Part shown: in pieces, positions 2,372 through 25,504 of the stretch
Position numbering within the stretch: the stretch's first letter is position 1
Layout of the letters: the number at the start of each line of letters is the position of its first letter
Assembly: GCA_016935525.1 (NCBI GenBank)
Contig: JAFGQU010000002.1
Location: forward strand, 98,560-162,559
DNA: 64,000 nucleotides
Direction of reading: 5' to 3'
Source of the DNA: Candidatus Omnitrophota bacterium
Lineage (GTDB): Bacteria > Omnitrophota > Gorgyraeia > Duberdicusellales > 4484-171
Notes under the pieces: model-generated
What the model was told of the DNA's origin: nothing
Database searches by the model: none
The model's input: only the letters and a program-made list of their open reading frames with translations
Program-made: the position numbers and the translations under genes

Positions 2372-2383
2372 TATTTTACTTAT

Positions 2384-3394: not shown

Positions 3395-3464
3395 AGAATA
3401 GCCATCTTTAAAAAACCGCGCGGCAATACCATGGATTTATTCCGCAAGGACCCTGTTTTTTGCA

Positions 3465-4694
3465 CTATTCAATTATATTTTTACTTTTTAAGGATGGTGT
3501 AAGATAAAAAATATTTCCCGAAACAATACTTTCGAGAAACGCTTCGTAATTGACGATGAGTTCTTTCAACGCGTTCTCATCAGTCACCGTGACGGATTTT
3601 TGAGCCATCTTCTTACAATAGGCACATTCAGAACAAACCCGCTGCGCACCGGCATCGTCGTTTAGAAAATGTTCGATGAATCCGTCTAAGGCGCGATTAT
3701 CGATATAAAGCGGCGGAGAAACCATAAGTTCCTTCATTTTGGAAAATCTCAGGACATCTACCTCCAGGGGACGGAAAAAATGCCGTAAGACATGGACCAG
3801 TTTTTTCACCGGGGAAAGATTTTCAAAGACAAAGGTCCGGCTGGGGTCGGAAAACAGATCCAACAGATTTCCGTCGTATCGTCGCCGGGTATAGGCAGCG
3901 ACAGTGCGGACAATATCCCTGGTCGGCATCGTTCTATTTACCAGTTTAAAATTATCTATCCCTATTTCTTCGTACACACCGGTATCTTCCGGACGGATCC
4001 ATCCGGACCGTATAAATTCTTCCGGGTTTTTCAAACGGATATGATTACACATAAGGAAACAATAGTCGACTACGAACCGGTTCCCGCTTTCGTCGGTCTG
4101 AGAGCTATGAGAACTGCTGTTTCCATGGTAAAGCCAGAAAGGACAATTTTTCAAACACTGGAGATTTACTATTAATTGCACTTCGCAAGATACATGATCC
4201 TTTAGTCTTCTCAATAAAAGAAAATTACGGTTGGCCCGGTGGACCGAAAGAGTGATCCTGTCGGCACCCATATCCTGCCAATGCCGCGCTTCCTGGATTG
4301 TATCGATACCGGTTTGAGTTGAAACATACACTTTGAATCTCGGATATCTTTTTTTGATACGCTGGAGGAGGTAGGGATTGGCGACAGTCAATGCGTCAAC
4401 ACCGATATGGTCAAGCCAACCCAGAAGACGCTCGATCTCATATTGCCCTTTCCTTGACCATTCTCTATTCCCCAAACAGGTACTGTTAAGCAGATAGTTA
4501 AAACGTAAACCATATCGATGCGTTTTTTCTACATAGCGCTTCACGGCACGCCGGGAAATGTCCGGTAACGCAAACGAGACTCGTCCTCCCCCGATGATAT
4601 CTTTCGCTAATTTACCGTATATTTCCGCCGCCGCGGTTTTATCGATTTGATCCAGCAATTGAAGGTCCCAATTAGTAGGAATGCTCAGTTGCAT
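3465..4694 (-). CDS. peptidase U32-family (UbiU/RlhA-type TIM-barrel) protein, divergent paralog
   Basis: Aligns with the canonical U32 gene at 8387..9409. 'GVDALTVANPYLLQRIKKR' matches 'GVDAVIISDIGLLRYVREK', 'VYVSTQ' matches 'VHISSC', and 'EVQLIVNLQCLKNCPF' matches 'EIEVFILNERCFYVDGFC'. Has a C-terminal CxxCxxC cluster. Confidence 0.55.
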   Translation of the reverse strand: MQLSIPTNWDLQLLDQIDKTAAAEIYGKLAKDIIGGGRVSFALPDISRRAVKRYVEKTHRYGLRFNYLLNSTCLGNREWSRKGQYEIERLLGWLDHIGVDALTVANPYLLQRIKKRYPRFKVYVSTQTGIDTIQEARHWQDMGADRITLSVHRANRNFLLLRRLKDHVSCEVQLIVNLQCLKNCPFWLYHGNSSSHSSQTDESGNRFVVDYCFLMCNHIRLKNPEEFIRSGWIRPEDTGVYEEIGIDNFKLVNRTMPTRDIVRTVAAYTRRRYDGNLLDLFSDPSRTFVFENLSPVKKLVHVLRHFFRPLEVDVLRFSKMKELMVSPPLYIDNRALDGFIEHFLNDDAGAQRVCSECAYCKKMAQKSVTVTDENALKELIVNYEAFLESIVSGNIFYLTPSLKSKNIIE

Positions 4695-4750
4695 TATCTT
4701 TTCTTCACACTAAAACGCGCCGACGCGATTCGATACCCCACGGAACTATC

Positions 4751-7543
4751 TTATTCTAATAAACGGTTTTTCACAATTATTTTGCTTATCTGCTGTGCGA
4801 ATAGTTTTTGGCCAAAACTCGTAAGATGCATGAAATCCCACCAGAGCGGATTGTCCACATCCTGTTGATCTAACCCAGCTTGGGGCGAAAGCAAAGGCAC
4901 GCGATAACGATGCGCCAGTCCTTCCAGGACCACATGCATAATGGCGGCATGTTTGATATCCGCCTCCTGAGAATTAGGTTCTTTGACAAATACAATATCG
5001 ATCCCGCGTTGCTGGCAGGGAAGAATGAATTTTTCTATAAGAGTCTGACGGAATTTTTCCCGGATGGTCTCTTTGTCCGGCCGGCTATCGGCGCCATGTA
5101 CGCCGGTGAGTCGAAGCCGGGCGCCTATACGATAGACCATCCGCCGGTACCAGGGAAAAGACTGCTTCTTATATGTCTCTCTCGCGTTCAACCAGAAATA
5201 ATAATCGTTGTTCGAAAGATTTAACACAATAACCTTGGGGTTATATTTGTAGAGAAAATTATTAAAAAAATTGCCAAGAAAAAGAGAATTTGCGCCATTG
5301 ATACCGCAGTTGATCACTTTGATATTTTTTCCCCGGGCCGACTGATTAAGATACTCTTCCACATACGCCGCGATGGTATGAGCCCGGTCCACTGCTCCGG
5401 CGCCCCAGGTCTGCGATGAACCCAAAAGCAACACAATATCTTTCCCTTTTATTTCCTCATCATACCCTTCGCCAAAATCATTATTACGTAAAAACGCGGC
5501 CAACCCTTGAGGCGGACGGCAGAGTTCACTGATGTCTTTTTTGAGACGAAAATAGGAAAATACCGTAGGCTGTAGATCTAAAGGGAGATCCGAAACCGGC
5601 TCACGGCCTATCGCAAGGATAAGTATCGTAGCGGCCAGTATGAATATACCGTTACGGATACGGTGTGCCCGTACAAGAAAGAAAACGATTATTGCCAGGC
5701 AGGCGCAATACAACATAAAATAGAAGAATTTATCGTTACAAAGGATATCCCTGAACACGATAGAGAGGATGAAAAAAGGAAACAGCAGAGAAAAAAACAG
5801 GAATACACCGTAAAAAGAGAACTGCCCTTCTTTTGTCCGATAACGGGGAGCAATGCTCACCGCGAACAACATCGTCAGAAAAAGGATTATCCCCAACACA
5901 AACACCGAAGAAATGATTTTTTTCGTTTTTACCCAATCCAGAATATGTATACCCTCAGGCAATTGCCGGACAGATATGTCCGATAACCGAGGGGTGCCGG
6001 CAACCGGAAATAAATAGAACGGACCATCTTCCTTTTCTTCTTCATCGTACCGTTTCCGGTCGACCACAATACCGTCGATCTTCGCCTCTAACATCCCACC
6101 GCTTTTAAAAATATCCAGCCGATACCGTGTCCCTTTTTGTAACGGATATATGGTACGGGGAGATGTATAGTTAAACGAAAAATCGTTATAGGCACCGAAA
6201 TAAGGGGCTATTTCTTCAAAGCCGGAGGGAACATCCGGGTCTGCGCTTAAAATAAACTTGTTATTCCCCATACCCACAAGCAGTTTTGAATATCCGTCCA
6301 ACATACAGAGAGAAGAAAAATGGTACCCCTCTGCCGGCAGCTCGATGCGTTTAGGCCATACCAATTGTATCGGGCCGCGATAAGATTCCGATCGAGATGA
6401 CCCCGGATTCGGACGGTACCTTTTGAATATATTCAGTGAGGTCCCGTTATATATGAATAAAAACACACAACTTAAAAAAAGTACCATATAGAGAATATTC
6501 CGGGGAGAAAAATCGCCCTGGCGGACAAGGGATTTATACCGACTCCCATATACATACGCTGTCACAAATACCAGGCAATAAAGAGAAAAAAACCACAGAG
6601 AAGGGATCCAGACGGTCCCGAAATAGAACAGAGAAAAAACGGTAAACCGTAACGAAGGCCACAGATAGTTGACGAGTAACAGCGTGCTCCCGGCACACAA
6701 TAATACTCTCAACAAAGGCCGGACTATTTCCTGTACCGCTTCCGCCATACGATCTTCCGGCGATTTCCCTCCTATATATATCGCCAGGGATAAGAACAGG
6801 ACATGGATACCGAAACTGATCAAAACCGAATAAAGGAATACTATCGGCACCGGTAACGGTCCCTGGAAATCGTCATGAAAGACAACGAACTCTTTGCTCT
6901 CACTACCGGCATACCTCCCGATAATCTCGACATTATCGATTACTACCGAATGGAGCCCGCTTCTAAACCCGATCCGCCCCAATTCGACAGAAGGTTCGGC
7001 GATTACACCCGCTGGTTGTCCGTCAATATATAATTCAAATTGCCCTTCACGTAATACCACCGAAACCGCGTACCATCGGCCCACTTCCAGCGGAGAATGT
7101 GCTGCATCGATTTTTTTAATATTTTCCATGAACGGAGAGAACCGGATAAAACTCACATTCCGGCTGAGAGAACTACCCAGACGAAACGCGAAGCTTCCTT
7201 GCTCATTCTTTTTGAACAGAAAATATACATAACTTTGAGGGCTTCCTAAATACACATCAAAATTCACCCTGGTGAATCGCAACTGTTCATCCTCGGGAAT
7301 CTTACATTCGATCTGATTAAAACCGTAGAATTTATTGAGTGCTAAATTGTCGTCGACAAGATAATGCAAATACTTAAAGGAATACGTTCCCATTACCGGG
7401 TACGCCAAATGATCTTTCGCAATATCCCAATGCGTATCATCAAAAGCATTGAAGTAAGAATGTAAAAATATATAGGTATTGAGCGAAAACACCAGGACCG
7501 TAGCGAAAAAAAGGACAGCTGAAGAGGTGAAGTGTTTTTTCAT
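4751..7543 (-). CDS. large multi-pass membrane protein with two concanavalin/LamG-like domains and a C-terminal SGNH (GDSL-like) hydrolase domain
   Basis: C-terminal SGNH blocks: 'LLLGSSQTWGAG' (block I), 'CGINGANS' (II/III) and 'WWDFMHLT' (block V DxxH). Two LamG-like segments ('WYAVSVVLREGQFELYIDGQP' and 'GGMLEAKIDGIVVD') are separated by hydrophobic TM clusters. Confidence 0.55.
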   Translation of the reverse strand: MKKHFTSSAVLFFATVLVFSLNTYIFLHSYFNAFDDTHWDIAKDHLAYPVMGTYSFKYLHYLVDDNLALNKFYGFNQIECKIPEDEQLRFTRVNFDVYLGSPQSYVYFLFKKNEQGSFAFRLGSSLSRNVSFIRFSPFMENIKKIDAAHSPLEVGRWYAVSVVLREGQFELYIDGQPAGVIAEPSVELGRIGFRSGLHSVVIDNVEIIGRYAGSESKEFVVFHDDFQGPLPVPIVFLYSVLISFGIHVLFLSLAIYIGGKSPEDRMAEAVQEIVRPLLRVLLCAGSTLLLVNYLWPSLRFTVFSLFYFGTVWIPSLWFFSLYCLVFVTAYVYGSRYKSLVRQGDFSPRNILYMVLFLSCVFLFIYNGTSLNIFKRYRPNPGSSRSESYRGPIQLVWPKRIELPAEGYHFSSLCMLDGYSKLLVGMGNNKFILSADPDVPSGFEEIAPYFGAYNDFSFNYTSPRTIYPLQKGTRYRLDIFKSGGMLEAKIDGIVVDRKRYDEEEKEDGPFYLFPVAGTPRLSDISVRQLPEGIHILDWVKTKKIISSVFVLGIILFLTMLFAVSIAPRYRTKEGQFSFYGVFLFFSLLFPFFILSIVFRDILCNDKFFYFMLYCACLAIIVFFLVRAHRIRNGIFILAATILILAIGREPVSDLPLDLQPTVFSYFRLKKDISELCRPPQGLAAFLRNNDFGEGYDEEIKGKDIVLLLGSSQTWGAGAVDRAHTIAAYVEEYLNQSARGKNIKVINCGINGANSLFLGNFFNNFLYKYNPKVIVLNLSNNDYYFWLNARETYKKQSFPWYRRMVYRIGARLRLTGVHGADSRPDKETIREKFRQTLIEKFILPCQQRGIDIVFVKEPNSQEADIKHAAIMHVVLEGLAHRYRVPLLSPQAGLDQQDVDNPLWWDFMHLTSFGQKLFAQQISKIIVKNRLLE

Positions 7544-7598
7544 TATGGTCTCCGGTCTTTTTCCGAAATAACTTCCCTATTCTTATCGGACATACCGG

Positions 7599-8369
7599 TC
7601 ATGGGTACAAAGTATAGACAATTCTATCGACCGGATGATCTTCTCCGTCATACGCCTCAAAATGAGGGTTTTTATAAAAAAAAGCGTTCTTTCGAATAAA
7701 AATAGGGGTTTCGATATTTTTTATAGCTATGACGATCTCTTCCGGTAAAGACGCCCCGCTCCCCGAAAAGATTTTAAATCTATCCCGGCCGCTAAACAGC
7801 GGATAGCGGGTAAGAGTAAGATACACATCCGGTACATGCAAGGAAAAAGAGAACGGCATCTCATCCAACTGTTCTTTAGCGACCCCCAAAGCGGTATTAC
7901 TCAATTCAATACGTTCAATATGCTGTTCTTTCATAAAGGCGGTAAAATATGTATTTACGGGAATCCGTTGCCATTTTTCGGAAATATTTTTTCCCGGCCG
8001 GCGATGGGTACCTAGCCTTGGATCCGACGGTTGGTGGGTTAAAAGCCGCCCTAAAGAAATTTTTACCCCGCTCTCCCGGCAGAGAGGGAGAAAACCCCAG
8101 TCGTTAAGCACGACTTCTAGGTCCAATCCTTGACAGCCCGATAACAACCGTACTATCCCTGCGTAGGCGTCAACACCTCTATCGGTAAGGAAAGGGGTCA
8201 CTAAGGTCATTCTCAATGCGTGTTGGCTGCAGAAATCCATCAACCGTTTCGTATCATCGACGGAAGGGATGTTTTCATTACAGAATTCATCGCCAAAATA
8301 AATCCGTTGATACCGGTCATCCCAAAGATCACATTGATCGATATGTTGTATATTTAACGCATATTCCAT
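7599..8369 (-). CDS. U32-family protein, short UbiV-like subunit
   Basis: 'RIYFGDEFCNEN' resembles the UbiV N-terminal 'IYLGEAVCSKR' region. It lies immediately downstream (minus-strand sense) of a canonical U32 gene, as in the ubiU-ubiV pair. Start moved to the internal Met (MEYALN) to avoid overlap. Confidence 0.45.
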   Translation of the reverse strand: MEYALNIQHIDQCDLWDDRYQRIYFGDEFCNENIPSVDDTKRLMDFCSQHALRMTLVTPFLTDRGVDAYAGIVRLLSGCQGLDLEVVLNDWGFLPLCRESGVKISLGRLLTHQPSDPRLGTHRRPGKNISEKWQRIPVNTYFTAFMKEQHIERIELSNTALGVAKEQLDEMPFSFSLHVPDVYLTLTRYPLFSGRDRFKIFSGSGASLPEEIVIAIKNIETPIFIRKNAFFYKNPHFEAYDGEDHPVDRIVYTLYP

Positions 8370-8386
8370 AATAAAAACATCATGAT

Positions 8387-9409
8387 TTATCGATAATAAC
8401 AGTATTGATCGCCGCAATACTTGCGGTATTTTTGAGCAAGACCCCGTACCTCAGCAACAAATTCTCCCTGCGGAATATCCTGTTCCGACAAGGCAATCGC
8501 ATCTTTTACGAACCGTATATTCCGAATCCGTTCGGTAAACATTGACCGCCCGCAAATCTTCACATGACTCACTTTTAATTCTTTCAAATCGCGCAAAGCG
8601 CAGGCTCCACAGGCATATAAAAATGACCGGGGATCATTAAAGTATTTTTGTGGTCGAAAAGCCGGTTCTCCCCCATCCTCAATCCCATAGGGGAAACAAC
8701 ACGCATGGTCATGGTTCACTACATACCTGTGCATTACCTGAAGTATTTTTCTGGGAATAACCGCCGCAGCAGATGCCAGCCACATATTGAAATGCCACAG
8801 AACAGTGGCGGCACCTAATCTTTTTGTAATATTCCCATGCTGGAAACGGCAAAACCCGTCCACATAAAAACAACGTTCGTTGAGGATAAAAACTTCGATC
8901 TCCATGCCGCCACCGGCGCAGATAGACCCTATTTCTTCTCTCGTCAGCTGGCGAGGCAGGATAATCCGCGAAGCCCCCATATTTTTATAAAAAGCGCGTG
9001 TGTGGGAATTGAATACGTTCGCGCAGGAACTGATATGTACAGATACATCGTATCCCTTCTCCCGCACATATCGTAAAAGCCCGATATCGCTTATGATAAC
9101 CGCGTCAACGCCGCAGTCATACGCTTGTTTTACCTGCTCCATTGCCGCACACAGCTTGTCGTCATCGTAAAACTCATTGAGCACCAAGCTCAAGGGAATT
9201 TTTAAATCGTGCGCTTTTTTCACTAACCGTCTTAACTGAGAAAAGTCGTTCAGGTTGGAAAACACCTCCGAACGGTGGTTTACGCATCCGGACCCTCTTG
9301 AATCACACCATTCATCCTTGGTGAACACGCCGCAATACAACTCATCGGCGCCGGCGGCAACGAGACTCTCAGCATCCTGCACTCTGTGGATAGGGACAAC
9401 TATATTCAT
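8387..9409 (-). CDS. peptidase U32-family protein (UbiU/RlhA-like, canonical)
   Basis: N-terminal 'GADELYCGV' and 'EIEVFILNERCFYVDGFCRFQHGN' match the U32 signature (E-x-F-x-H-G-x-x-C-x-x-x-x-G-x-C). TIM-barrel-like alternating pattern. Confidence 0.7.
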   Translation of the reverse strand: MNIVVPIHRVQDAESLVAAGADELYCGVFTKDEWCDSRGSGCVNHRSEVFSNLNDFSQLRRLVKKAHDLKIPLSLVLNEFYDDDKLCAAMEQVKQAYDCGVDAVIISDIGLLRYVREKGYDVSVHISSCANVFNSHTRAFYKNMGASRIILPRQLTREEIGSICAGGGMEIEVFILNERCFYVDGFCRFQHGNITKRLGAATVLWHFNMWLASAAAVIPRKILQVMHRYVVNHDHACCFPYGIEDGGEPAFRPQKYFNDPRSFLYACGACALRDLKELKVSHVKICGRSMFTERIRNIRFVKDAIALSEQDIPQGEFVAEVRGLAQKYRKYCGDQYCYYR

Positions 9410-10950
9410 CTGATCGGCATACGCGGGTCGGATACGTTCATCAAATAGAAATAAAGCGGTATCCGTTGGTCATATCTGATATATTCTACCTTTATATTGC
9501 CGCTCATCGCCTCCGGATCTATACGTTCTAAAGAAAGCAATACCGCTTGTTCATGACGGGGAAAACCGGTCAGGACAGTCATCGTCTGCATATCATATAT
9601 TCCGTTACCGATATATTGCACCACACGATGTTCTCCGCCAACTCCGTACAAACTGGTACTTCCCGGTAAATACATCCATATTCGTCTTATTACTTTGTGG
9701 GTAGTCAGACTTCCCGGCACGCATACTGCGGAAATGTTCTGCTGGCGCATATATACTGAAAGCCACCGGCTCGATTCCTTGATCTGATATTCCTGACTAC
9801 GGCTTAACGAATCCCCTTTCCTTTTTACGTCATACTGTAATGCTCTTATCTGAAAAACACACACCAAAACAAGCAGGGCTATTCCCCCTACGAAATATAT
9901 TTTTTTCATCATGAATCGGGGGAAGAGATACCGCTCGAGAACGGCAGAAGATAAAATAGCCATTAAAGGCACCAATGGGATCAGGATTCGCCCCTCTAAA
10001 CAGAAAAGCCCTTGTGATAAAATCCTCAGGGAATGGAAAAAATGGGTAATCTGGAATCCGGCGAGAAAAGCGACCATAATCAAAAAAAATCGCGTCACAA
10101 ACCAGTAGCGCGGATCCCGCCAGTTCATCTTTGCCCCCCAGAAAGCCATAAGAATAACCGGATGTAAAAACAGTATGCCGCCGAGTATAAGGAACCTATC
10201 GAATGGGCCGGTCGCACTCACCGGGAATACCGACGGATACAGATAAAAAAATATCTGGAAAAAATCATACTTTAAAAAATGAATAATAAAAATACTCCAT
10301 AGGATAAAAGGTATACCCATAAAAATCGCATATCGCTTCTTATATTTCCCCCGGAAAAGGCCCAACCAGATCGCGATACACAAAAGGCCTTCTACCTGCC
10401 GAAATAAAGGCAAAAAGGCAACCAGCATGAATGATACGGTATATTTTCTTTTCAATGTCAGAAAAACCGCAAGAAGGATCATAAAGGCGAACATGATCTC
10501 GGAAAACGTAGAAATAGATCCGAGGAAATAGACCGGAAATGTAATCGCCAAAAATACGGCTATTGACGCGGCCCGGCGGGAAAGCGAAAGCATCCGGGCA
10601 ATCCGATAGACGAGAAAAAGGGTCGCACAGGAAAATAAAATATTCATTATCCGCAGTGAAAATATACCAAAAGGCAGGAGAATATGGAATACGCTCCCCA
10701 TAATGGCGTATCCGACCTTTACATAGGGATTGAGAAAAATAAGCCAGTTATAGGGCGCAGCCTTGATATAGCAATAACGGAATATATCATCGACGTTATA
10801 TAAGATATATTGATCGAGCAAAGCCGCGCGGAGAGGCTCACGGATACACCAGGCAAAAATCATGAGAACCCCACCAATCGCAGAAATAAGAAGGAGAGGA
10901 AGCTGTGTGTCTTTTTCCTCGTGGGAAGGGCGCATTGTCTTATTGAACAA
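9406..10950 (-). CDS. GT-C fold membrane glycosyltransferase, ArnT/PMT_2-like
   Basis: More than 10 predicted TM helices. 'LPFGIFSLRIMNILFSCATLFLVYRIARML' matches the PMT_2/ArnT family pattern. ATGA overlap with the upstream gene. Confidence 0.5.
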   Translation of the reverse strand: MFNKTMRPSHEEKDTQLPLLLISAIGGVLMIFAWCIREPLRAALLDQYILYNVDDIFRYCYIKAAPYNWLIFLNPYVKVGYAIMGSVFHILLPFGIFSLRIMNILFSCATLFLVYRIARMLSLSRRAASIAVFLAITFPVYFLGSISTFSEIMFAFMILLAVFLTLKRKYTVSFMLVAFLPLFRQVEGLLCIAIWLGLFRGKYKKRYAIFMGIPFILWSIFIIHFLKYDFFQIFFYLYPSVFPVSATGPFDRFLILGGILFLHPVILMAFWGAKMNWRDPRYWFVTRFFLIMVAFLAGFQITHFFHSLRILSQGLFCLEGRILIPLVPLMAILSSAVLERYLFPRFMMKKIYFVGGIALLVLVCVFQIRALQYDVKRKGDSLSRSQEYQIKESSRWLSVYMRQQNISAVCVPGSLTTHKVIRRIWMYLPGSTSLYGVGGEHRVVQYIGNGIYDMQTMTVLTGFPRHEQAVLLSLERIDPEAMSGNIKVEYIRYDQRIPLYFYLMNVSDPRMPIR

Positions 10951-11147
10951 TTCTGCCGATTTCTATATGTCGGCGATTATGTGTCAGGGATCCTTGTGAT
11001 CGGTCATTATACCACTCTTGACAAAGGCTGCCCCGGACCTTCGTGAGTATCCTGAAAAAATCAGAAATCATTATATCCAATAAGCTTTATAAGTACAACT
11101 TTAAAATAGTGCCGCCGAGGTCCCCTCGGTGCCTAAAAAACGGTTTT

Positions 11148-11166
11148 TTGACAATACTCTTGTCAA
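11148..11166 (+). promoter_or_regulatory. perfect palindrome TTGACAA-tactc-TTGTCAA in divergent intergenic region (candidate operator or -35 element)
   Basis: Read directly in the sequence, about 125 nt upstream of the likely start of the membrane-paralog gene. Nearby are an AAAAAACgGTTTTTT palindrome and a CCGAGGtcccCTCGG hairpin. Confidence 0.3.
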
Positions 11167-11290
11167 GGGCCCGAGACGATGATATCCTCTTTTTGGAGAG
11201 GCGGAATTGTTTTCCGCGTCTCCTGTTCTACACGGAAATTCTCATGTCTATGTATTGCGATATGCCCTTTCTTTCATTCTCTACACATTA

Positions 11291-12358
11291 ATGGATATCA
11301 ATATATACCCAACTATCCTGGCTATCGGCGAAATGAGTATCTTCGCCCTGCTGATTTTTCATTGTTGGTCACTAAGAGGGAAACGTATTACTTTTACCTT
11401 TTTTATCTTTTCTTTTATCTGCATGGCCTGGAAAGTGATCGGGGTCACGCCTAAACGTCCCCCGAATATCCCTCAGATGGCTTCTCATCATTATCAATTA
11501 CTCTTTTTCCCCCAACAGGCATCTCTTTTAGGGGAATTCATTGCCATCGTGGGGTGGATAATCGTATTTTATTTAAGTTGGCGGTTGGCGGAAAAAATCA
11601 TAGAAAACATTCCCTATTACAAAAACCGGATATTCCCGGTATTATTTTTCAGCGGTCTGGCCGCCATAGGATTCTCTTATGCAATTGAAGCAACCGCTAT
11701 TGCGGCCAAATGGTGGGCCTGGAAATATGAATACAAAGAAATCGCGGCCAGCTCGTTTTTGGTGGGGACGGTACCCTTCTATGCGTTAACCGCATGGTTT
11801 GATACTACCGTGCATTTGTTAGCGGCATATTTTCTTATCGAATGCACCCGATTCAGAAAATATTGGTGGAAGTTCATTTTTCTGTTCATCCCCCAATGTA
11901 GTTACCGATTCGAAATCATGGGATTAAGGGTATATGAAGAATTGGTTATGATAACTTTCCTATCCTTTTTCTCATTTTTCAATAAGTTGCCGTTTATGTA
12001 TGGGAACATAGATCTCGTATCGCCTGTAAGACGGGGAAAGAATATCGCCGGTTATCTACTGAAACGTGAACCCCACATGATACTCATTCTCACCGCAAGC
12101 ATTCTGGCGTATGTGCTGTTCATCGATATGTTCGTAATACAACAACCCGTACTGATTATTTCTAAATTGCCGCTGGGGATCATGCTCCTTCTCGCCGGTA
12201 AAAGGATAAAAACTGCTTACTTTCTTGCCCTCGGGATACTGTTTTTAGCTTTTTTTATCAAAAGCCGGCCGCTTCTGATCACTCTCTTCCCGGCGGCTAT
12301 CTTTCTTGTGTTTGAAGGAAAAGCCCGGTTTACTCAATCCCGCGGTACCAGGCAATAA
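11291..12358 (+). CDS. polytopic membrane protein, paralog 2 of the uncharacterised family
   Basis: Shares 'GWIIVFYLSWRLAEK', 'IEATAIAAKWWAWKY' and 'YFLIECTRFRKYWWKF' with the other two paralogs. Start set at MDINIY to match the paralog N-termini; the track ORF starts at 11207. Confidence 0.5.
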   Translation: MDINIYPTILAIGEMSIFALLIFHCWSLRGKRITFTFFIFSFICMAWKVIGVTPKRPPNIPQMASHHYQLLFFPQQASLLGEFIAIVGWIIVFYLSWRLAEKIIENIPYYKNRIFPVLFFSGLAAIGFSYAIEATAIAAKWWAWKYEYKEIAASSFLVGTVPFYALTAWFDTTVHLLAAYFLIECTRFRKYWWKFIFLFIPQCSYRFEIMGLRVYEELVMITFLSFFSFFNKLPFMYGNIDLVSPVRRGKNIAGYLLKREPHMILILTASILAYVLFIDMFVIQQPVLIISKLPLGIMLLLAGKRIKTAYFLALGILFLAFFIKSRPLLITLFPAAIFLVFEGKARFTQSRGTRQ

Positions 12359-13518
12359 AAGCTAATGGTTGTTTCCCTCCCCTGATTTTTTGGAATATCT
12401 TCATGAAAAAAGCTCAACCCCACAGATTTTGGGCGGGGACTTAATAGATAAAAACTGGCAGCGATCATACACAACGCGCCTATGATATATCCCGCTTTGG
12501 GAGGAAACAGATTGAACCGTATTGGTCCGGACCGGTCCCGGGAGAGAGACGACCGGATATATAACCAGTCCAGCGCATATAAGAGAGAAACGAACAGGAC
12601 CACTACCAAGCCGGGAACAGCCGGCTTACCGAAAAATCCGGCCAAAAGGCCGGCCAACGCCAGCGGGATGACAACAGGGATCCTGCCGATAGTCAGAAGG
12701 ATAATAAAAATGAAAGGTAATTTTGAAAAAATCAATTGCGGTTCTCTGACCACGCACAGATCAACCGCCGTAAAAACCATCACGGTACCGACCGCAAGGA
12801 AAGAAGGCGCCATTTTTAAAAAGCTATTGGCAGATTCTTTTGTTCGCGAAGGCCGGTATACTAATTTTAAATGAGAAAAAAAAGCCAAAACTATCACGCC
12901 ATCAAAAACGATGAATCTGATCAAAGCGAATTCCCGGGAAAAATATATCCACATGTAGCTGGCGGGAATAAGAAAAAACAGCGATTTCCACACATTGTCC
13001 TTGAACGAAGAACTTTCGATTAAAAAGAAAGGCAGCATAAAAAAGATATAAAATTCTATCCATCCGATAACCGCGCCGTAATTATATCCGGCCACAAAAA
13101 ACGATGAAAATTCCGAAGAAACCGCCTGCCATACCCACCATCCGGCACTGATACCGGTAGCTTCAAAGGCATAGGATATCGTCCCGGCAATGAATAACGA
13201 AAGGAATAAGGTGCTGAACAATCTCTCTCTAAAAACCCGGGTCCTCCCGAGTATTAATTCGGAAAGATACCAACTCATATAGAAAGTGAATATCCATCCT
13301 AAAATAACCGCACATATGACGAGAACGGTTGAAACCCCTTCGACGGTAAACCGGTAAGGCGCGACCGGAGAAAACGGCAACGTACTTTCTCTACGGAATC
13401 CCCAGAGTAACATAAAAAGGAAAAAGTGGAAGGTGATCCTCGCTCCTTTAGTCGATGAGGAATGGAATATGAGCACTATAACGCTCACGATGGCTGAAAT
13501 CAAAAGGAAATGAAACAT
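12334..13518 (-). CDS. polytopic membrane protein, paralog 3 of the uncharacterised family
   Basis: Shares 'GWIFTFYMSWYLSE', 'FEATGISAGWWVWQ' and 'FFLIESSSFKDNVWK'. Convergent 3'-end overlap of 25 nt with paralog 2. Confidence 0.5.
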   Translation of the reverse strand: MFHFLLISAIVSVIVLIFHSSSTKGARITFHFFLFMLLWGFRRESTLPFSPVAPYRFTVEGVSTVLVICAVILGWIFTFYMSWYLSELILGRTRVFRERLFSTLFLSLFIAGTISYAFEATGISAGWWVWQAVSSEFSSFFVAGYNYGAVIGWIEFYIFFMLPFFLIESSSFKDNVWKSLFFLIPASYMWIYFSREFALIRFIVFDGVIVLAFFSHLKLVYRPSRTKESANSFLKMAPSFLAVGTVMVFTAVDLCVVREPQLIFSKLPFIFIILLTIGRIPVVIPLALAGLLAGFFGKPAVPGLVVVLFVSLLYALDWLYIRSSLSRDRSGPIRFNLFPPKAGYIIGALCMIAASFYLLSPRPKSVGLSFFHEDIPKNQGRETTISFYCLVPRD

Positions 13519-13547
13519 AGATATTTTTCTCTCCGTTACCCGGCAGC

Positions 13548-14273
13548 TTATTCGATAATCATATCAATATCCGTGAGATCACTATCTCCTATATGTAACG
13601 GATTGTCCTTATAAGAAACCCGGCGGCAGCGCGGATCGTTCCCGCTGCTTGCTCCCGGGGGCACGGTTACCGCCATCAGACATACGTCGCCTACCCCTTG
13701 GGGAACACTAATAGTATACGGCCCGGGAGCCGAAAGAACAATATTGGCGATATCAGGAGGCAACCGGACCTTATGATACCGTTCGACTTCATATACTCCC
13801 ACCTCCACCCTTCCGCCAGTGAACTGAGCGTCATAGACCTGACCGGATATCGTCACCGTCGGGCCGGAATATCGTTCCATCACCAAACGGTTCGCGCGTA
13901 AAGGGATCGTATAATGAGATATATTTTCCTCACCGATAACGATAGGATCGGAGATAAAATACGCAAATGAATATCGCTTCTGGGGAGTGTCGCCGCGGTT
14001 ACGGGAAAGAAGATATATCGGCCCGGAATTCTTAGGGATCTTCAGTGTATACCGGCCGGGGCGGTTTAAATATACTATGCCTTGAGCGGCAGGATTTCCA
14101 TGTTGCAGTTTCTTCGACCATAACACCTCGATATCGCCCTTTTCGAACTCATCATAGACGACTTCCCCTTCAATGACTATATACGACCGTTGTTGATGCC
14201 AGATCTTAATACAAAGAGCCCCTACCACAATACCGATAATAATACCTGCCAATATTTTCCGGACCATGTTCAC
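13548..14273 (-). CDS. membrane-anchored exported protein of unknown function (two beta-rich repeats)
   Basis: N-terminal TM anchor 'ILAGIIIGIVVGALCIKIW'. Internal repeat 'GRYTLKIPKNSGPIYLL' / 'GPYTISVPQGVGDVCLM'. No recognisable catalytic motif. Confidence 0.4.
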   Translation of the reverse strand: MNMVRKILAGIIIGIVVGALCIKIWHQQRSYIVIEGEVVYDEFEKGDIEVLWSKKLQHGNPAAQGIVYLNRPGRYTLKIPKNSGPIYLLSRNRGDTPQKRYSFAYFISDPIVIGEENISHYTIPLRANRLVMERYSGPTVTISGQVYDAQFTGGRVEVGVYEVERYHKVRLPPDIANIVLSAPGPYTISVPQGVGDVCLMAVTVPPGASSGNDPRCRRVSYKDNPLHIGDSDLTDIDMIIE

Positions 14274-15808
14274 CGCTCTTTTATTCTACAATAATATGTC
14301 TCAACGCCGGGTATCTTTTTATCCTGAAAAACTATTTCCTGTTCTCTCAACCATTCCCGTAGCTGCGAGGAAAGATAAGGAACTCCTTCCCAATGAGAAC
14401 ATACGACCCACGCGCCGCGGGCTGAGGAAGCGATCCGATGGATATCGGCTATTTCAAAACCATAGGTACCCTGCAACGCGGAAAAAGAACCATCGTCGGG
14501 AAAATCTGCAGGGTCGATAATTAAATAAATATACTGTCGTAACCGCTGAGGGAAATAATACTGAAATGACGGCCAAATATTCTGAGTCGAGAGGACGATG
14601 ATATCGCCTTCCTTGTATCGTGAGACGATCGACCGGGCGATCTGACGCAGCGGCTTCCGGGGAAATACACTGACGGTCCTGCGAAAATTTTTTTCATCGT
14701 AATAATTCCCTAACGTAAGAACCGTCACCGATAGAAAAAGCGCTCCCATCAGTACCGCAAGGTATTTATATTTAAAAAGCCGTTCCCACCCCAGCACGAG
14801 CACGAGATAGTAACACGGCGACAACGCGATCAACGTACGGGTCAAAAGTATCGGTTTTGCTGAATAAGAGAAAATAATTATAAGCGCCAGAGGAGCCCAT
14901 AGGTAGCTCGCGATGAAACTCCTTTGGCTGAAAGAGTCGTCCTGCCCGGTCTTTCCGGAAACAATGGGATAAAATAGTATCGCCCACAGTAATCCTCCCG
15001 CAGTGATCAGCAATAATAACCATCCGTTGATATTGGCAGTATAATATCCGAACAGGAACTGTTCAAATACCTCAATAAGCCTCTGGATTGAGACCGGAGG
15101 GATCCAAAAATCGTTTCGTATACTCCCCAGATGAGCAAAAAACTTAGCCCCCCAGGGAATGAACAATAAGATGAGTATGCCCTGAGCTGACAGCCAGGAC
15201 GGTATTAATTCCTTATATCTCCTCCAATTGAAAAACAAAAATACATTATGGGAAAGAATAATAAGAAAAGCAAAATAATGAGTGTAAAGAGAAAGGGCAG
15301 TAACAAAGACCGTGATTCCCAGTATTCTACCGTCTCGTGTTTTTAAAAATACCTGAAAAAAATATATCGAACCGAGAGACAATAAAAGAAGAAGAGAATA
15401 CATCCGGATCTCCTGGGCATAATGTATCTGAAAAGGAGAAACCGCGATAAAAAATGCACCGAGCAACGCTATTTTTTTAGAAAAGATCAGTTCAGCGAGT
15501 TTATACAGTAACCAGATGCTGATAATACTGAATACTACCGACGGGATTCTCAGAAAGGCGTCACTTGACCCCAGATGTTTCCACCAATACATGAGAAGCC
15601 GATAGAGCGGAGGATGTGTCCCGACGCTAAAGGTGGTAAAAATACTTTTTAATCCCTGTTCAGCCTGTAATAATGTCTGCGCTTCATCGAACCATACCGA
15701 TTTCACATCCAAACGGAAAAAACGCAACATCGCTCCTACTCCCAGCACACAGATAAGGCCGCTATATCCGCGGGATATCTTTGCGATGAGCTGCGAAATT
15801 ATCGGCAT
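14270..15808 (-). CDS. GT-C fold membrane glycosyltransferase, ArnT/PMT (GT39/GT83)-like
   Basis: 'VWFDEAQT' DE-motif loop after TM1, 'THPPLYRLL', and 'RIPSVVFSIISIWLLYKLAELIF'. Polytopic. Confidence 0.6.
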   Translation of the reverse strand: MPIISQLIAKISRGYSGLICVLGVGAMLRFFRLDVKSVWFDEAQTLLQAEQGLKSIFTTFSVGTHPPLYRLLMYWWKHLGSSDAFLRIPSVVFSIISIWLLYKLAELIFSKKIALLGAFFIAVSPFQIHYAQEIRMYSLLLLLSLGSIYFFQVFLKTRDGRILGITVFVTALSLYTHYFAFLIILSHNVFLFFNWRRYKELIPSWLSAQGILILLFIPWGAKFFAHLGSIRNDFWIPPVSIQRLIEVFEQFLFGYYTANINGWLLLLITAGGLLWAILFYPIVSGKTGQDDSFSQRSFIASYLWAPLALIIIFSYSAKPILLTRTLIALSPCYYLVLVLGWERLFKYKYLAVLMGALFLSVTVLTLGNYYDEKNFRRTVSVFPRKPLRQIARSIVSRYKEGDIIVLSTQNIWPSFQYYFPQRLRQYIYLIIDPADFPDDGSFSALQGTYGFEIADIHRIASSARGAWVVCSHWEGVPYLSSQLREWLREQEIVFQDKKIPGVETYYCRIKER

Positions 15809-17227
15809 TTAATTCGTCCCTCTTGCGCATTCTTTCAATACACTCAATCCGGCGTGCCAGTAGTGGACGATCTGGCGGATATTCCGGACGCCACCGATGA
15901 TATTCACCATTCGTCGAGGATAAAGATAAAAACTAAGGTTTGCTTTCTTTATACATTCCGTGACCTTTTCTGAGCCGAGTTCAGTTTCGACATAAGGCGG
16001 GTCTCTCCTTATAGTATTACCCCGGATATATTCCCGCCAGTAATCGAACCGGTTTTTGGCCAGATACTGTTCATAAAGCGGGGTCGCCTGGATTATGGTC
16101 AACTTGGAAAATTGGGCGAAATCCAATTGTGATTTTTGCGCAAAACGTAACGTAGATCGGATCGTATGAAGCGTCTCCCCGGGAGCGCCTAACATAAAAA
16201 AACCAAAAGGCACTATTCGGTATTTCTTAGTCATCTCGATTTTCCTATTCATCTGCTCGATCGATATCGACGGCCTGTTGAGGTTTTTCTGTATCATCGG
16301 ATCGGCCGATTCGATCCCGTACATGAGCATCCGGCATCCGCTTTGAGCCATTTCTTTCAGTAATTCTTCATCGACCAGGTGGATACGGGTCCGGGCCATC
16401 CAGCTTAAAGAAAGCCGGTTCCTCCGTATCCTTTGGCATAGATCGATCGTTCTTTGCCGGTCGAGAGTAAATACTGTATCATAAAAATCCACATCCCGGA
16501 CGGAAAATCGATCATAACATTCTTTAAGTTCTTCGATCACATCATCGATATCTCTTATCTGTAAAGGATCGGGCCGGGAACAATATGTACATTCGAACGG
16601 GCATCCTTTCATGGTAACTACGGCGGTAAAATTTTTTCTTTGAGAGAACGAAGAAAAATATCTGCCATTAGGAAGCAGTTCCCTGGCCGGATGAGGCATC
16701 TTAAGAAAACTGTCCTGCTGATCCTCGCGGGGATTCACATAGAGCACATCGTCTTTACGGAAACAAAGGCCGCTCACGCTATTAAGATCTCCGCTATTGC
16801 CTAACACCGTTAAGAATTCCGGTAACGCGGAAAGCCCCGATCCCTGCAACGCGTAATCGATCTCGGGATGAGCCATGACTTCATGAGGATATATACTCAC
16901 CAGCGCGCCGCCGATGATTACCGGCAAAGAGACAATTTCTTTTATCTTTTTGATCCAAGCCCGCACATTATGAAAAGTAGCGGTAGTGACCGTAAATCCG
17001 AGGATATCGGGGTCGCTCTTTCTTATTTCTTTTATGACTTCGGCAAAAGACAGCCTCAATATATTCGCGTCAATAATATGTACCTGGTGTCCGGTCTTTT
17101 TAAGGATTGCCGCAAGATACGCGAGAGTTAACGGCGGATATCCGCGCATGTTTTCTTCATATCCGCCGATCTCAAACAGATTGTGCGCGGAAATAGTACT
17201 GTGCGGATATAGTAAGGAAACTCTCAT
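15809..17227 (-). CDS. B12-binding radical SAM protein (class B radical SAM, methyltransferase-like)
   Basis: N-terminal cobalamin-binding Rossmann region ('DILGFTVTTATF'). Radical SAM motif 'KGCPFECTYCS' (CxxxCxxC). Confidence 0.7.
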   Translation of the reverse strand: MRVSLLYPHSTISAHNLFEIGGYEENMRGYPPLTLAYLAAILKKTGHQVHIIDANILRLSFAEVIKEIRKSDPDILGFTVTTATFHNVRAWIKKIKEIVSLPVIIGGALVSIYPHEVMAHPEIDYALQGSGLSALPEFLTVLGNSGDLNSVSGLCFRKDDVLYVNPREDQQDSFLKMPHPARELLPNGRYFSSFSQRKNFTAVVTMKGCPFECTYCSRPDPLQIRDIDDVIEELKECYDRFSVRDVDFYDTVFTLDRQRTIDLCQRIRRNRLSLSWMARTRIHLVDEELLKEMAQSGCRMLMYGIESADPMIQKNLNRPSISIEQMNRKIEMTKKYRIVPFGFFMLGAPGETLHTIRSTLRFAQKSQLDFAQFSKLTIIQATPLYEQYLAKNRFDYWREYIRGNTIRRDPPYVETELGSEKVTECIKKANLSFYLYPRRMVNIIGGVRNIRQIVHYWHAGLSVLKECARGTN

Positions 17228-17293
17228 CTGGCAAGGTTACGTTGAGCCGATCTTTCTTGAAAAAAATCTATCATTTTTTGCCCGAAGGCACCG

Positions 17294-18718
17294 TCAGTTC
17301 TTACAAGTGACATGCTTCCATATATCCAAAGCGAAGGAAGCTTTCTGAACCATGCTTTTCAAAGAAAAAGCATCTCCCAGGTGCCGCATGATATAAAGGG
17401 GACGGAAATAAAAAGATTTGTAGGCATATTTTAATAATCCATTCAATTCCTGCTCGCTCAGATCCCCTGTCCAAAAAGGCAATTTAAAACCCGCCGTCGG
17501 GTGCTGGGCATAGGTTTTCCAACAATCTCCATAGATACCCTGTTCTAATCCCCTGGTGTACAACTCTGTTCCCGGAAAAGGAGCGACGATGGCAAACATC
17601 GCGTAATTCGGATCGAGTTCAATCGCGAATCGGATCGTGTTCATAATATCTTCTTTTGTCTCAGTCGGCGCACCGATCAAAAAATATAAAAGCATCTGTA
17701 TACCCGCCTCTTTTGTATCAGCAACAACTCTTCGGGCCTGTTCAACGGTAATCCCTTTTTTAAGCACTTTTAACATCCGGTCGGTACCGGCTTCAATACC
17801 GTACTGGATACGGGTACACCCGGCCGCGTTTAATCGTTCCAGCATTTTCCGATTCATCAGATCTACCCGAGCCCGGATATTCCATTTAAAATCCAATCGG
17901 GCAGCGATAATCCGGTCACATATCTCATATACCCGTTGTTCATCAAAATTAAAGAGATCATCGTAGAAAAATATCTCCTGAATGCCATTGGCCACACATT
18001 CGGAGATTTCACTCACGATATTCTCGGGGCTGCGGCTGCGGATCTTATACCCTTGATGTTGGCGAGAGCAAAAAATACACTGATAAGGACAGCCCCGGGA
18101 AGTAATCATTACCGTATAGGGGACATTTCTCCCCAGCAGGGTACGATAGCTGTACTTATCGACTAAATGCCTGGCCGGAAACGGCAATACATCCAAATTA
18201 TCCAGAAAAGGCCTCAGAGGAGTCTCAACGATCTTCCCCTCGTTCTTGTACAATATCCCTTTCACCGCAGAAAAATCACCGTCATGTTCAATTGTGTCGA
18301 CTAATTCGGCAAGGGTTATTTCGCCATCGCCGCGGACAACGAAATCGACCTCAGCAAACTCGATGGTTTGAAAAGGATAGACTGAACAATGGGGACCGCC
18401 GATACAGACTGTGATTTTCTCGTCTACCGCTTTTACTATTTTCGCAATTGCCAAAACATTTGCTAAATTAAACGTGACGGCATATATTCCTACGATACGC
18501 GGAGAAGTATCGCGAAGGTATTTTTCTATCGAGTCTATTCCTCCCGGTTCCCGCTGGCAATCAATAAGATTGACTTCATGAGAGCCGTAGCGAGCCATAT
18601 AGGAAGCAAGATACAATAATCCTAACGGGGGATATATCGAAAGTGACGCCGCAATGTTTTCCAGTAATCCCCTGCTGGTGACCATATTATTCGCAGGATT
18701 AATAAGGGTTATCTTCAT
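17294..18718 (-). CDS. B12-binding radical SAM protein
   Basis: 'RIVGIYAVTFNLANV' B12 domain. 'SRGCPYQCIFCS' CxxxCxxC. Confidence 0.7.
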   Translation of the reverse strand: MKITLINPANNMVTSRGLLENIAASLSIYPPLGLLYLASYMARYGSHEVNLIDCQREPGGIDSIEKYLRDTSPRIVGIYAVTFNLANVLAIAKIVKAVDEKITVCIGGPHCSVYPFQTIEFAEVDFVVRGDGEITLAELVDTIEHDGDFSAVKGILYKNEGKIVETPLRPFLDNLDVLPFPARHLVDKYSYRTLLGRNVPYTVMITSRGCPYQCIFCSRQHQGYKIRSRSPENIVSEISECVANGIQEIFFYDDLFNFDEQRVYEICDRIIAARLDFKWNIRARVDLMNRKMLERLNAAGCTRIQYGIEAGTDRMLKVLKKGITVEQARRVVADTKEAGIQMLLYFLIGAPTETKEDIMNTIRFAIELDPNYAMFAIVAPFPGTELYTRGLEQGIYGDCWKTYAQHPTAGFKLPFWTGDLSEQELNGLLKYAYKSFYFRPLYIMRHLGDAFSLKSMVQKASFALDIWKHVTCKN

Positions 18719-18759
18719 CGCCTTTATTATACCTTAATAACCTTACAATGAATCGATAT

Positions 18760-20280
18760 TTAACCGGGATGCCCCGCTTCTTTAGGACGAGTGGCGGTCT
18801 CTTTATAATGGTTCGTCCATTTTCCGATCGTATTACGGACTTTAAGTGACCATAATTTAACATAGTCGTTCATTAAAAAATAACCTCCATACACCATATC
18901 GGCAAGAGAGAAAGTCCTCCGCCACAATGTCCGCACGATAAACCAGGGCCGCAGATAAAAAGAAGCCATTGCTTTCCGCTGCAGAGCGCTCAATTCCGGT
19001 TTGGTCATCTTTTCGGGGCTATAGAGGATCTCTCCTTCGGTATCCGACCAATCATACCAGCTGGTATATCTATCGGGATCGTCTTCCCCTTTGGCCGGTT
19101 CCCATTGGTCTTCATAAAATTTCGACCCCGGGAAGGGAGTCGCGATATTGAATTTAACGATGTCCGGATTTACCTTTTTCGCGAATCGGATCGTTTCTTC
19201 GCAGGTAGAGGCATCTTCTTGCGGCAACCCCAATACAAATAATCCTAAAGAAAGGACTCCGGCTTTCCTGGTATATTCCATCGCCTGATACCCTTGCTCA
19301 AGGGTGGCGCATTTATTTACCGAATCAAGGATCCTCTGATTTCCCACCTCAAATCCATACATGATCAAATACAGGTTAGCTTCTTTCATCCTGCGCAGCA
19401 AATCGAGATTTACCTTATCTACTCTAGTCTCAGTAAACCAGCGTATCTTTTTATGCAGTTTGCGTTTTATAAACTCATCACAAAATGCTAAGCCGGATTC
19501 TATCGAAACCGGAAAATAGGCGTCGGTAAAACCGACATACTCTATTCCGAACCGCTCATAAAGATATTCTATCTCATCGATAACTTTATAGATATTCCGG
19601 CAGCGGAACGTATCGTACATCTTATCCTGGGAACAGAAAGTACAACGATAAGGACATCCCCGGGAAGCTTGTATCGGCAAAACAAGTTTATTATAAATAC
19701 CCAGCATAGGATATCTCCGATAGTACCGAAGCTGACACAGATCCCAGGCCGGAACAGGAAGCTGATCCAGATCCGCGATGCATCCCCGTCCTTTATTATG
19801 ATATACTCCCCCGGCGTACCGATAACTGATCCCCTCGATTTCATTCAACATCCGGTCATCCCGTAACGCGGTGAGCGCCTCCAGAAAACTCTCTTCGCCT
19901 TCGCCGCGGACAACAATATCCGCGACATCATCTTTCAGGAGTTCATCGGCAAAAAGGGTCGGATGGATATTACCCAGTATGCAGGTACATGATCTTTTCG
20001 CCGACCGGATCTGGCTTACTAAAGATATCACGTTGCCCATGACCGCGGTCAAACAGGAAATACCGACGACATCAAAATCCTCATCCACGATCATTCTGGC
20101 GATATCCTGGTTGCTTCGGCGGGTAGCATACTGATCTTCGATGGAAACCTCAAATCCCCCGTCCCGAGCGATAGCGGCCAAATAGGCTAGTCCTAACGGT
20201 GGCAGAGGGCTTACCGAACGATAATACCGCGCACTTTTTTGGGCTACATGCGATATGGGGTTAATTATTAAGATTTTCAT
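18760..20280 (-). CDS. B12-binding radical SAM protein
   Basis: 'DVVGISCLTAVMGNV' B12 domain. 'SRGCPYRCTFCS' CxxxCxxC. Confidence 0.7.
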   Translation of the reverse strand: MKILIINPISHVAQKSARYYRSVSPLPPLGLAYLAAIARDGGFEVSIEDQYATRRSNQDIARMIVDEDFDVVGISCLTAVMGNVISLVSQIRSAKRSCTCILGNIHPTLFADELLKDDVADIVVRGEGEESFLEALTALRDDRMLNEIEGISYRYAGGVYHNKGRGCIADLDQLPVPAWDLCQLRYYRRYPMLGIYNKLVLPIQASRGCPYRCTFCSQDKMYDTFRCRNIYKVIDEIEYLYERFGIEYVGFTDAYFPVSIESGLAFCDEFIKRKLHKKIRWFTETRVDKVNLDLLRRMKEANLYLIMYGFEVGNQRILDSVNKCATLEQGYQAMEYTRKAGVLSLGLFVLGLPQEDASTCEETIRFAKKVNPDIVKFNIATPFPGSKFYEDQWEPAKGEDDPDRYTSWYDWSDTEGEILYSPEKMTKPELSALQRKAMASFYLRPWFIVRTLWRRTFSLADMVYGGYFLMNDYVKLWSLKVRNTIGKWTNHYKETATRPKEAGHPG

Positions 20281-20300
20281 CGTTATGTTCCGAAAGTGAA

Positions 20301-20435: not shown

Positions 20436-20542
20436 GCAGGTCGGGATTACCCGTTCGACAACAACACACGGTGTTTATTATAAATCCATATCCTCACCTG
20501 TCAAATACCTCAAACAATCGGATTGGTTCGTGCTTGCATGCC

Positions 20543-25500: not shown

Positions 25501-25504
25501 GTGT

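Follow-up and report, generated by a model that had tools for sequence, protein, structure and literature searches.

The question raised by this locus is what is encoded by three genes of a Candidatus Omnitrophica metagenome-assembled genome (GenBank assembly GCA_016935525.1), all of which are annotated as hypothetical (JXD21_00550, JXD21_00580 and JXD21_00585). They lie in a stretch of 64,000 nucleotides (nt) of contig JAFGQU010000002.1 (positions 98,560 to 162,559, forward strand), termed the window here, and are referred to as A, B and C. The three products are genuine paralogues and belong to a family of multi-pass membrane proteins that lacks annotation. This family is a very distant, enlarged relative of the PF04240 family ("carotenoid biosynthesis protein", Caroten_synth), with homology over transmembrane (TM) helices 1 to 5, and it most likely modifies or handles an isoprenoid lipid in a large cell-envelope gene island of anaerobic bacteria. 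The genes are located as follows.

11291..12358 (+): paralogue A, 355 amino acids (aa) from the ATG at 11291; MBN2482677.1, annotated as hypothetical protein
12334..13518 (-): paralogue B, 394 aa; MBN2482678.1, annotated as hypothetical protein
2384..3394 (-): paralogue C, 336 aa; MBN2482671.1 / JXD21_00550, annotated as hypothetical protein
12334..12358 (unstranded): A/B overlap, 25 nt common to the convergent 3' ends, with the stop codons TAA and TGA

That the three proteins form one family had been proposed in a preliminary description of this DNA and is borne out by pairwise BLASTP values of 7e-37 (A-B), 2e-33 (A-C) and 1e-27 (B-C), which are far beyond chance. The three-way alignment gave 31-32% identity and 55 invariant columns. 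All motifs quoted earlier were recovered in the alignment and the translations, namely HxxSxxGxR(I/L)T, GW(I/M)xxFY(L/M)SWxL(A/S)E, (I/F)E(E/A)(A/T)xxxxxWWxW and (Y/F)FLIE(C/S)(S/T)xF, but the last is looser than the original wording YFLIE(C/S)(S/T)RF(K/R)K, B carrying FFLIESSSFKD at this place. The convergent orientation of A and B and their 25-nt overlap had been described correctly. The reading frame of A is already open from a TTG at 11207 and would encode 383 aa if that codon were the start, while B possesses one extra C-terminal TM helix and a tail of about 35 aa beyond the family domain. Promoter-like sites around A and B occurred at chance level, and terminator-like sites were unremarkable.

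The family is considerably larger than the three members counted before. A profile built from the paralogues and one relative was searched against 1.84 billion representative proteins (clusters at 50% identity) and retrieved 257 clusters at E ≤ 1e-3, 169 at E ≤ 1e-10 and 51 at E ≤ 1e-30. The family thus comprises at least 257 clusters, and arrays of four to five paralogues are found elsewhere. All members seen are named hypothetical. Among the best 149 matches, 64 are 261-420 aa long, 37 have 260 aa or fewer and 48 exceed 420 aa; a typical member has about 330-350 aa and 10-11 TM helices. Named sources of the full-length form are Omnitrophota, Planctomycetia/Planctomycetales and Elusimicrobia, whereas short forms stem from Myxococcota and Candidatus Helarchaeota (Asgard archaea). 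No curated hidden Markov model (HMM) library recognises the family: A, B and C gave no Pfam or NCBIfam match at E ≤ 1, and no meaningful family match was obtained for 56 core relatives scanned against Pfam. The earlier statement that the proteins fit no known family therefore stands as far as Pfam and NCBIfam matches are concerned, but their status as orphans does not, given the remote homology of the core to PF04240.

Several profile comparisons point to this relation. With the family profile, archaeal proteins of 205 aa were retrieved at E values of 1e-23 to 1e-28, and hhalign of the family against these proteins gave a probability of 98.9% (E 1.2e-17). Two of the six archaeal proteins scanned reach the PF04240 gathering score (25 bits) and cover nearly the whole model. 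Among 52 further divergent members, six match PF04240 (best E 6.6e-9), three DUF6989 and one an ABA4-like family. A profile of the divergent members in turn finds genuine PF04240 proteins at E values of 4e-7 to 9e-6 in a database of 5.8e9 sequences, one of which clusters with Methylobacterium entries that RefSeq names "carotenoid biosynthesis protein". Compared directly by hhalign, the 56-member core family aligns with three PF04240 proteins at 94.6% (E 6.9e-8) and with eight diverse PF04240 proteins, four of them RefSeq-annotated, at 95.5% (E 1.5e-8); the latter alignment comprises 153 columns, includes TM1-5 and spans residues 11-172 of C.

The archaeal proteins of 205 aa, together with Asgard-type forms of about 295 aa (e.g. 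P0170 from Candidatus Helarchaeota), bridge the family and PF04240. They share with the window proteins H22, G28, R30, T32, E47, G82-W83, F87-Y88, E127, the WWxW motif (W135/136/138) and W161 (numbering of C). They differ from them in consisting of the core only, or of the core and an unrelated tail, and in having unrelated small 4-TM proteins rather than island genes as neighbours. On two Asgard-type contigs, one to three tandem copies of a 128-aa 4-TM protein follow the 205-aa PF04240-like gene (L008, 8726..10153; L011, 9006..9392).

Residues of C correspond to those of the PF04240 protein P0175 as follows: H22 to H63, G28 to G69, E47 to E88, Y88/W91 to Y128/W131, E127 to D170 (the invariant Asp of PF04240), W136/W138 to W180/W182 and W161 to W199. 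The invariant set of PF04240 that was compared comprises E88, TGFPFGxY, GYxxW, D166, D170, WxW and FGVPxxNxxGW. Kept in the family are the His, the Gly, the Tyr/Trp pair, D170 in the form of E127, WxW and W199 in the form of W161, while E88 is kept as E47 in B and C only; the motifs TGFPFGxY and FGVPxxN and the residue D166 are not retained. Conservation over 147 relatives amounts to 96% for H22, Y88 and W136, 95% for K/R46, 94% for E127, 92% for W138, 90% for W161, 88% for W83 and 80% for E95, in agreement with the earlier observation of conserved acidic and aromatic residues in predicted TM helices. The two groups differ in size: PF04240 proteins have about 210-310 aa built around one domain, whereas A, B and C with 336-394 aa contain four to five more TM helices.

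About ten helices are predicted by the hydropathy of A, B and C as well as by an AlphaFold2 model of C. With the 56-sequence alignment, the model reached a pLDDT of 91.6 and a pTM of 0.92 and shows ten long helices; an earlier run on a 4-sequence alignment had a pLDDT of only 49 and was unusable. Two parts can be distinguished in C.

2795..3394 (-): PF04240-like core of C, approximately residues 1-200, six helices in the model
2384..2794 (-): C-terminal extension of C, approximately residues 201-336, 4-5 TM helices; P254 and P284 conserved

The core carries H22, G28, R30, T32, K46-E47, G82-W83, Y88, W91, E95, Y124, E127, W135/136/138 and W161. The extension is specific for the family and is found neither in PF04240 proteins nor in the 205-aa archaeal forms. 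No internal duplication was detected within the core or between core and extension, so that the latter is not a duplicate of the former. A split-gene origin was considered as well, but the L020 neighbour unk206, the Asgard 128-aa proteins and a 298-aa glycine-rich neighbour are unrelated to the extension. A Foldseek search of the model against the PDB returned a best E value of 0.095, and TM-scores of the first ten matches did not exceed 0.22, all of these being unrelated transporters or receptors; the family profile hit PDB sequences only by chance (E 0.17). The empty Foldseek result is explained by the lack of a solved structure in the PF04240 superfamily, for which none was found by sequence search either; in this respect the two groups are alike. 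Counts of Lys and Arg in 56 sequences follow the positive-inside rule and suggest that the N-terminus is located outside, and loops 1-2, 3-4, 5-6, 7-8 and 9-10 as well as the C-terminus inside. Conserved His, Arg and Thr residues are situated in a strongly positive loop.

Evidence on the putative substrate comes from a gene pair of the window, the counterparts of which accompany single family members at other loci.

36641..37507 (-): UbiA-family prenyltransferase; closest to DGGGP synthase (closest solved relative) and chlorophyll synthase
35457..36644 (-): variant radical S-adenosylmethionine (SAM) protein (NF045502), found together with the UbiA gene in every case

In four loci (L006, L014, L017 and L020), a single family member is encoded within three genes of a UbiA and variant radical SAM pair whose products show 34-56% (UbiA) and 42-65% (radical SAM) identity to the window orthologues. 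L006 is from Omnitrophota, and L020 from Myxococcota with a DUF92 gene. The member is fused to a sulfatase-type domain in L014 and to TPR repeats in L017, where a gene for a trans-polyprenyl diphosphate synthase (PF00348) is present as well. The pair itself is conserved across phyla, sometimes together with a trans-polyprenyl synthase, DUF92 or the 298-aa glycine-rich secreted protein.

Because of the homology to PF04240, the retained His, acidic and aromatic residues and the repeated pairing with a trans-type prenyltransferase system, we tentatively propose, as the best-supported though still uncertain reading, that the family members are intramembrane acid/base enzymes whose substrate is the isoprenoid chain of a membrane lipid. 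The target lipid would be made by the UbiA-type prenyltransferase and the variant radical SAM enzyme conserved alongside the family. E127, H22 and the Tyr/Trp cage would donate a proton to a C=C bond and stabilise the carbocation so formed. Addition of water would follow, hydration being the most likely chemistry and cyclisation an alternative outcome. The paralogues may each target another position of one lipid, or intermediates of it that differ in their tailoring; this lipid might be modified further by the products of the B12-radical-SAM, U32, GT-C and other glycosyltransferase genes of the island. A lipid-related role, as surmised before, fits the genomic context.

The CruF carotenoid 1,2-hydratases and bisanhydrobacterioruberin hydratase are, as we assume, members of PF04240, and the CruF enzymes are to our knowledge the only characterised ones. 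CruF has been described as a membrane-associated carotenoid 1,2-hydratase (PMC6013536), and in bacterioruberin clusters a pairing of cruF with the UbiA-family lycopene elongase gene lyeJ is conserved (PMC8305020; PMC9948471). A UbiA-family neighbor thus recurs for both groups. In contrast to PF04240 proteins, the window family falls below every Pfam threshold, has its extra C-terminal helices, occurs in ordered multi-paralogue arrays and in fusions to periplasmic domains, and resides in an envelope island of anaerobes whose scanned genes have only a UbiA-family member in common with the carotenoid gene set (crtB, crtI/crtD, lyeJ). The lycopene-cyclase-domain, Wzy and exosortase families had been suggested for comparison; no match to any of them was obtained. 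For the lycopene cyclase domain of the CrtYc/CrtYd type, Pfam gave no match with A, B and C at E ≤ 1 or with 108 relatives at E ≤ 1 or E ≤ 0.01. PF04240 comes closest in kind to the lycopene-cyclase idea, as both are membrane proteins of carotenoid pathways.

Several points weigh against an isoprenoid-modifying enzyme. A, B and C (at E ≤ 1) and the 56 core members have no direct PF04240 match, and the link is made by profile comparison and intermediate sequences. Position 47 is Glu in 41% of the 147 relatives, and A, as the sole one of the three, has Val there. By the positive-inside rule, H22 and E127 may be located on opposite faces of the membrane. As to the placement of CruF in PF04240, no paper which ties CruF to the Pfam family was found among the literature on PF04240, Caroten_synth or DUF422. 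Many PF04240 genes are found in non-carotenoid contexts, so that hydratase activity does not follow from membership. Neither a phytoene synthase nor a desaturase was present among the genes scanned across the island, and the island is otherwise glycan-like (WecA-like, GT2, GT4, GT-C, mutase and ABC exporter genes). Finally, the existence of members fused to periplasmic domains (TPR, sulfatase-type, beta-rich) would suit the handling of a lipid carrier at least as well. As to the PF04240 contexts, RefSeq "carotenoid biosynthesis protein" genes were inspected in Vibrio, Bradyrhizobium and Legionella (plasmids L023, L024, L026) and in Methylobacterium (L018/L019). No carotenoid genes were found within about 6-8 kb on either side, and the contexts, like those of the Asgard relatives, were uninformative; little about function can therefore be read from the family name. 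A gene of the Amino_oxidase family left of the window was considered as a CrtD-like desaturase, in analogy to a crtD-lyeJ-cruF arrangement, and turned out to encode a UDP-galactopyranose mutase (E 6e-45).

The fusions are found in the long forms of the family, which always contain one additional TM helix past the family domain, followed by a soluble domain of one of three kinds. These are TPR repeats, a sulfatase-family domain of the alkaline-phosphatase superfamily (relatives P0082 and P0114) and a beta-rich domain resembling the window protein unk241 (C-terminal in P0009 and P0030, E 1.3e-12 and 2e-11). A, B and C lack the sulfatase-family domain. A single extra helix in front of presumably periplasmic domains agrees with the predicted topology with the N-terminus outside and the C-terminus inside. 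The sulfatase-family domains fused to family members (P0082, P0114) or encoded next to them (L004, 11049..13894) apparently read T-V-P-A-H where true sulfatases have C/S-x-P-x-R, which, judged by eye, suggests a phosphotransferase type with a Thr nucleophile rather than a sulfatase.

These fusions lead to the main alternative, possible but somewhat less likely, that the family is a lipid-carrier module of periplasmic glycan assembly. The core would bind a polyprenyl or isoprenoid phospholipid and serve as a new type of transferase, polymerase, flippase or lipid-binding domain for periplasmic partners, leaving the isoprenoid chain unaltered. Besides the three kinds of fused domains behind one extra helix, the stand-alone sulfatase-family genes following the L004 array are in line with this, as is the island, which is rich in GT-C/PMT_2 genes and also encodes WecA-like, GT2 and GT4 proteins, a UDP-galactopyranose mutase and an ABC exporter. 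The positive loop with the conserved His, Arg and Thr is a candidate binding site for a phosphate head group. The layout of a polytopic membrane domain, a TM helix and a sulfatase-family domain, seen only in the fused relatives P0082 and P0114, resembles that of LtaS, EptA and OpgB, but the membrane domain of these relatives is PF04240-like and not of the 5-TM type of LtaS and EptA. Against a carrier module stands the fact that no sequence or profile similarity to the GT-C, WecA and UbiA proteins of the window was detected (hhalign probability ≤1.1%), that Pfam and NCBIfam gave no match to Wzy, O-antigen ligase, flippase or exosortase models, and that no GT-C, WaaL or SEDS structure was among the 50 best Foldseek matches listed. 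PF04240 proteins are the only detectable relatives. In addition, the trans-polyprenyl synthase and DUF92 partners point to a trans-prenyl diphosphate donor and not to a cis-polyprenyl phosphate carrier. The hhalign comparisons included the window PMT_2 proteins, unk514, the LamG/GDSL protein, UbiA, the PEMT-like and the WecA-like proteins and revealed no kinship with any of them.

A second setting of the family is that of tandem arrays. One Planctomycetia contig (L001 and L005) harbors four copies in tandem and another one at a distance of 23 kb; L002 has five tandem copies, L013 four and L021 two. In L004 (Omnitrophota), three copies are followed by two sulfatase-family genes and one more copy, which is annotated as a pair of neighbouring open reading frames (ORFs). 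According to a neighbour-joining tree, the arrays are collinear sets of distinct orthogroups with the same order in L001, L002 and L013. C belongs to the last-position orthogroup ("position-4") and is 38-41% identical to L001_4, L002_5 and L013_4; B pairs with its closest relative L005_1 (Planctomycetia, 42% identity), and A stands alone. The arrays of four to five paralogues are surrounded by U32, B12-radical-SAM and GT-C genes as in the window. A count of co-occurrence with U32 and GT-C genes had been suggested, and these genes do recur around the arrays, but the most consistent partners also include UbiA and the variant radical SAM gene, which recur beside the family.

The ordered arrays would also be compatible with a non-catalytic, hetero-oligomeric scaffold, which would tether the soluble U32 and B12-radical-SAM enzymes or an unk241-type protein to the membrane and present the lipid substrate to them. 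A conserved order of orthogroups in L001, L002 and L013 is typical of complex subunits, the arrays are flanked by the genes for these enzymes, and the fusion to an unk241 domain suggests physical association. We consider such a scaffold improbable, as the near-invariant polar and aromatic TM residues common to PF04240 argue for a binding or catalytic pocket, single-copy members have only UbiA and the radical SAM gene as partners and lack U32 and B12-radical-SAM genes in their vicinity, and the family, U32 and radical SAM paralogues are not present in one-to-one numbers. It is very improbable that the proteins are highly diverged but otherwise ordinary exosortases, or O-antigen polymerases or ligases of the Wzy type, from a polysaccharide cluster. 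Such a reading would be in line with polytopic membrane proteins in a polysaccharide-type island and with the DUF3473-type deacetylase encoded there, deacetylases of this type being typical of PEP-CTERM/exosortase polysaccharide loci. No Wzy, O-antigen ligase or exosortase model of Pfam or NCBIfam was hit by A, B, C and the 56 relatives at E ≤ 1, so that the confident Wzy-type match named in the preliminary description as its refutation did not occur; no structural match in the PDB was detectable, and there is positive evidence for a different superfamily. GT-C and Wzy/WaaL-type proteins resemble the family in being polytopic and in sharing the island, and some family relatives have C-terminal TPR repeats as many GT-C proteins do, but no sequence, profile or fold similarity to them was detectable.

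The island in which A, B and C are embedded extends over the window up to about 42.6 kb (269..42618), with housekeeping genes beyond. The following features lie close to the three genes.

3465..4694 (-): U32-family paralogue, directly upstream of C and co-directional
13548..14273 (-): unk241, located 29 nt upstream of B, with one TM helix at the N-terminus and a repeated beta-rich domain
7599..10950 (-): triad unk514 / U32_b / unk272, in the same order upstream of family arrays in L001 and L013
9406..10950 (-): unk514, 9 TM helices and a C-terminal domain of about 130 aa, no Pfam or NCBIfam match
8387..9409 (-): U32_b, UbiU/TrhP-like U32 protein
7599..8417 (-): unk272, soluble, no family match
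14270..20280 (-): PMT_2 (GT-C) gene with three genes for B12-binding radical SAM proteins, located upstream of unk241 and B

C is located 70 nt downstream of the first of these genes on the same strand. The adjacency to a divergent U32 paralogue was thus reported correctly, but "divergent" applies to the U32 sequence only and not to the orientation of the gene. The triad is found directly upstream of the array in L013, while a PMT_2 gene lies in between in L001. The possibility that unk272 is a diverged UbiV-like partner of the U32 protein was supported neither by BLAST nor by hhalign. No family match was obtained for unk241, paralogues of which are scattered in the related islands L004, L005 and L021. 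The gene families of 14270..20280 also flank the arrays in L001, L002, L004, L013 and L021.

In total, the island encodes a GH44-like protein, four U32 paralogues, a polytopic LamG/GDSL protein, unk514, unk272, unk241, three PMT_2 (GT-C) proteins, five B12-binding radical SAM proteins and a PEMT/ICMT-like methyltransferase. Further gene products are a WbuX-like amidotransferase with a glutamine amidotransferase (GATase-domain protein), the DUF3473-type deacetylase, a carbamoyltransferase, GT2, GT4 and WecA-like proteins, and the UbiA prenyltransferase with the variant radical SAM protein. To the left of the window (L022, about 10 kb left of its start), the island continues with genes for the UDP-galactopyranose mutase, the ABC exporter and a GT2-radical-SAM fusion. 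This envelope island measures more than 42 kb, and blocks syntenic to it are also found in Planctomycetia, Omnitrophota and metagenomic contigs. In the LamG/GDSL protein (930 aa; 4751..7543, -), a LamG-like domain and about eight TM helices are joined to a GDSL lipase/acylhydrolase domain at the C-terminus; L021 encodes an orthologue (917 aa, 34% identity) directly after the family genes. The longest ORFs of the adjacent U32 paralogues 23120..24478 and 24298..25590 (both -) overlap by 181 nt, and the next PMT_2 ORF (25505..26920, -) overlaps the U32 ORF by 86 nt; most likely, the true starts are downstream of the first TTG or ATG listed.

Beyond the single proteins, the gene content of the island might point to an oxygen-independent pathway which has not been described before. 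Its components would be the arrays, the UbiA/radical-SAM pair, five B12-radical-SAM enzymes, several GT-C proteins and at least four U32 proteins, the last as candidate prephenate-type hydroxylases. In Omnitrophota, Planctomycetota and Elusimicrobiota, they could build an envelope glycolipid or polymer with an isoprenoid anchor that is heavily tailored by hydration or hydroxylation, C-methylation and glycosylation, and the family would then represent a new class of intramembrane isoprenoid hydratases or cyclases with a fold absent from the PDB. We put this forward as a speculation that is unlikely to hold.

The family is part of a superfamily that already has a name, as a distant branch with an extended architecture and a genomic setting that is new. 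Several hundred membrane proteins annotated as hypothetical thereby gain an assignment to a superfamily, a confident model and a list of candidate catalytic residues. The reach of PF04240 extends far past carotenoid producers into anaerobic and largely uncultured phyla, and a large conserved envelope island is seen to combine gene families linked to oxygen-independent tailoring of lipids or glycans. If the proteins are indeed isoprenoid hydratases, they would provide a cofactor-free scaffold for alkene hydration, and new lipid structures, possibly of use as biomarkers, would be predicted in Planctomycetota and Omnitrophota.

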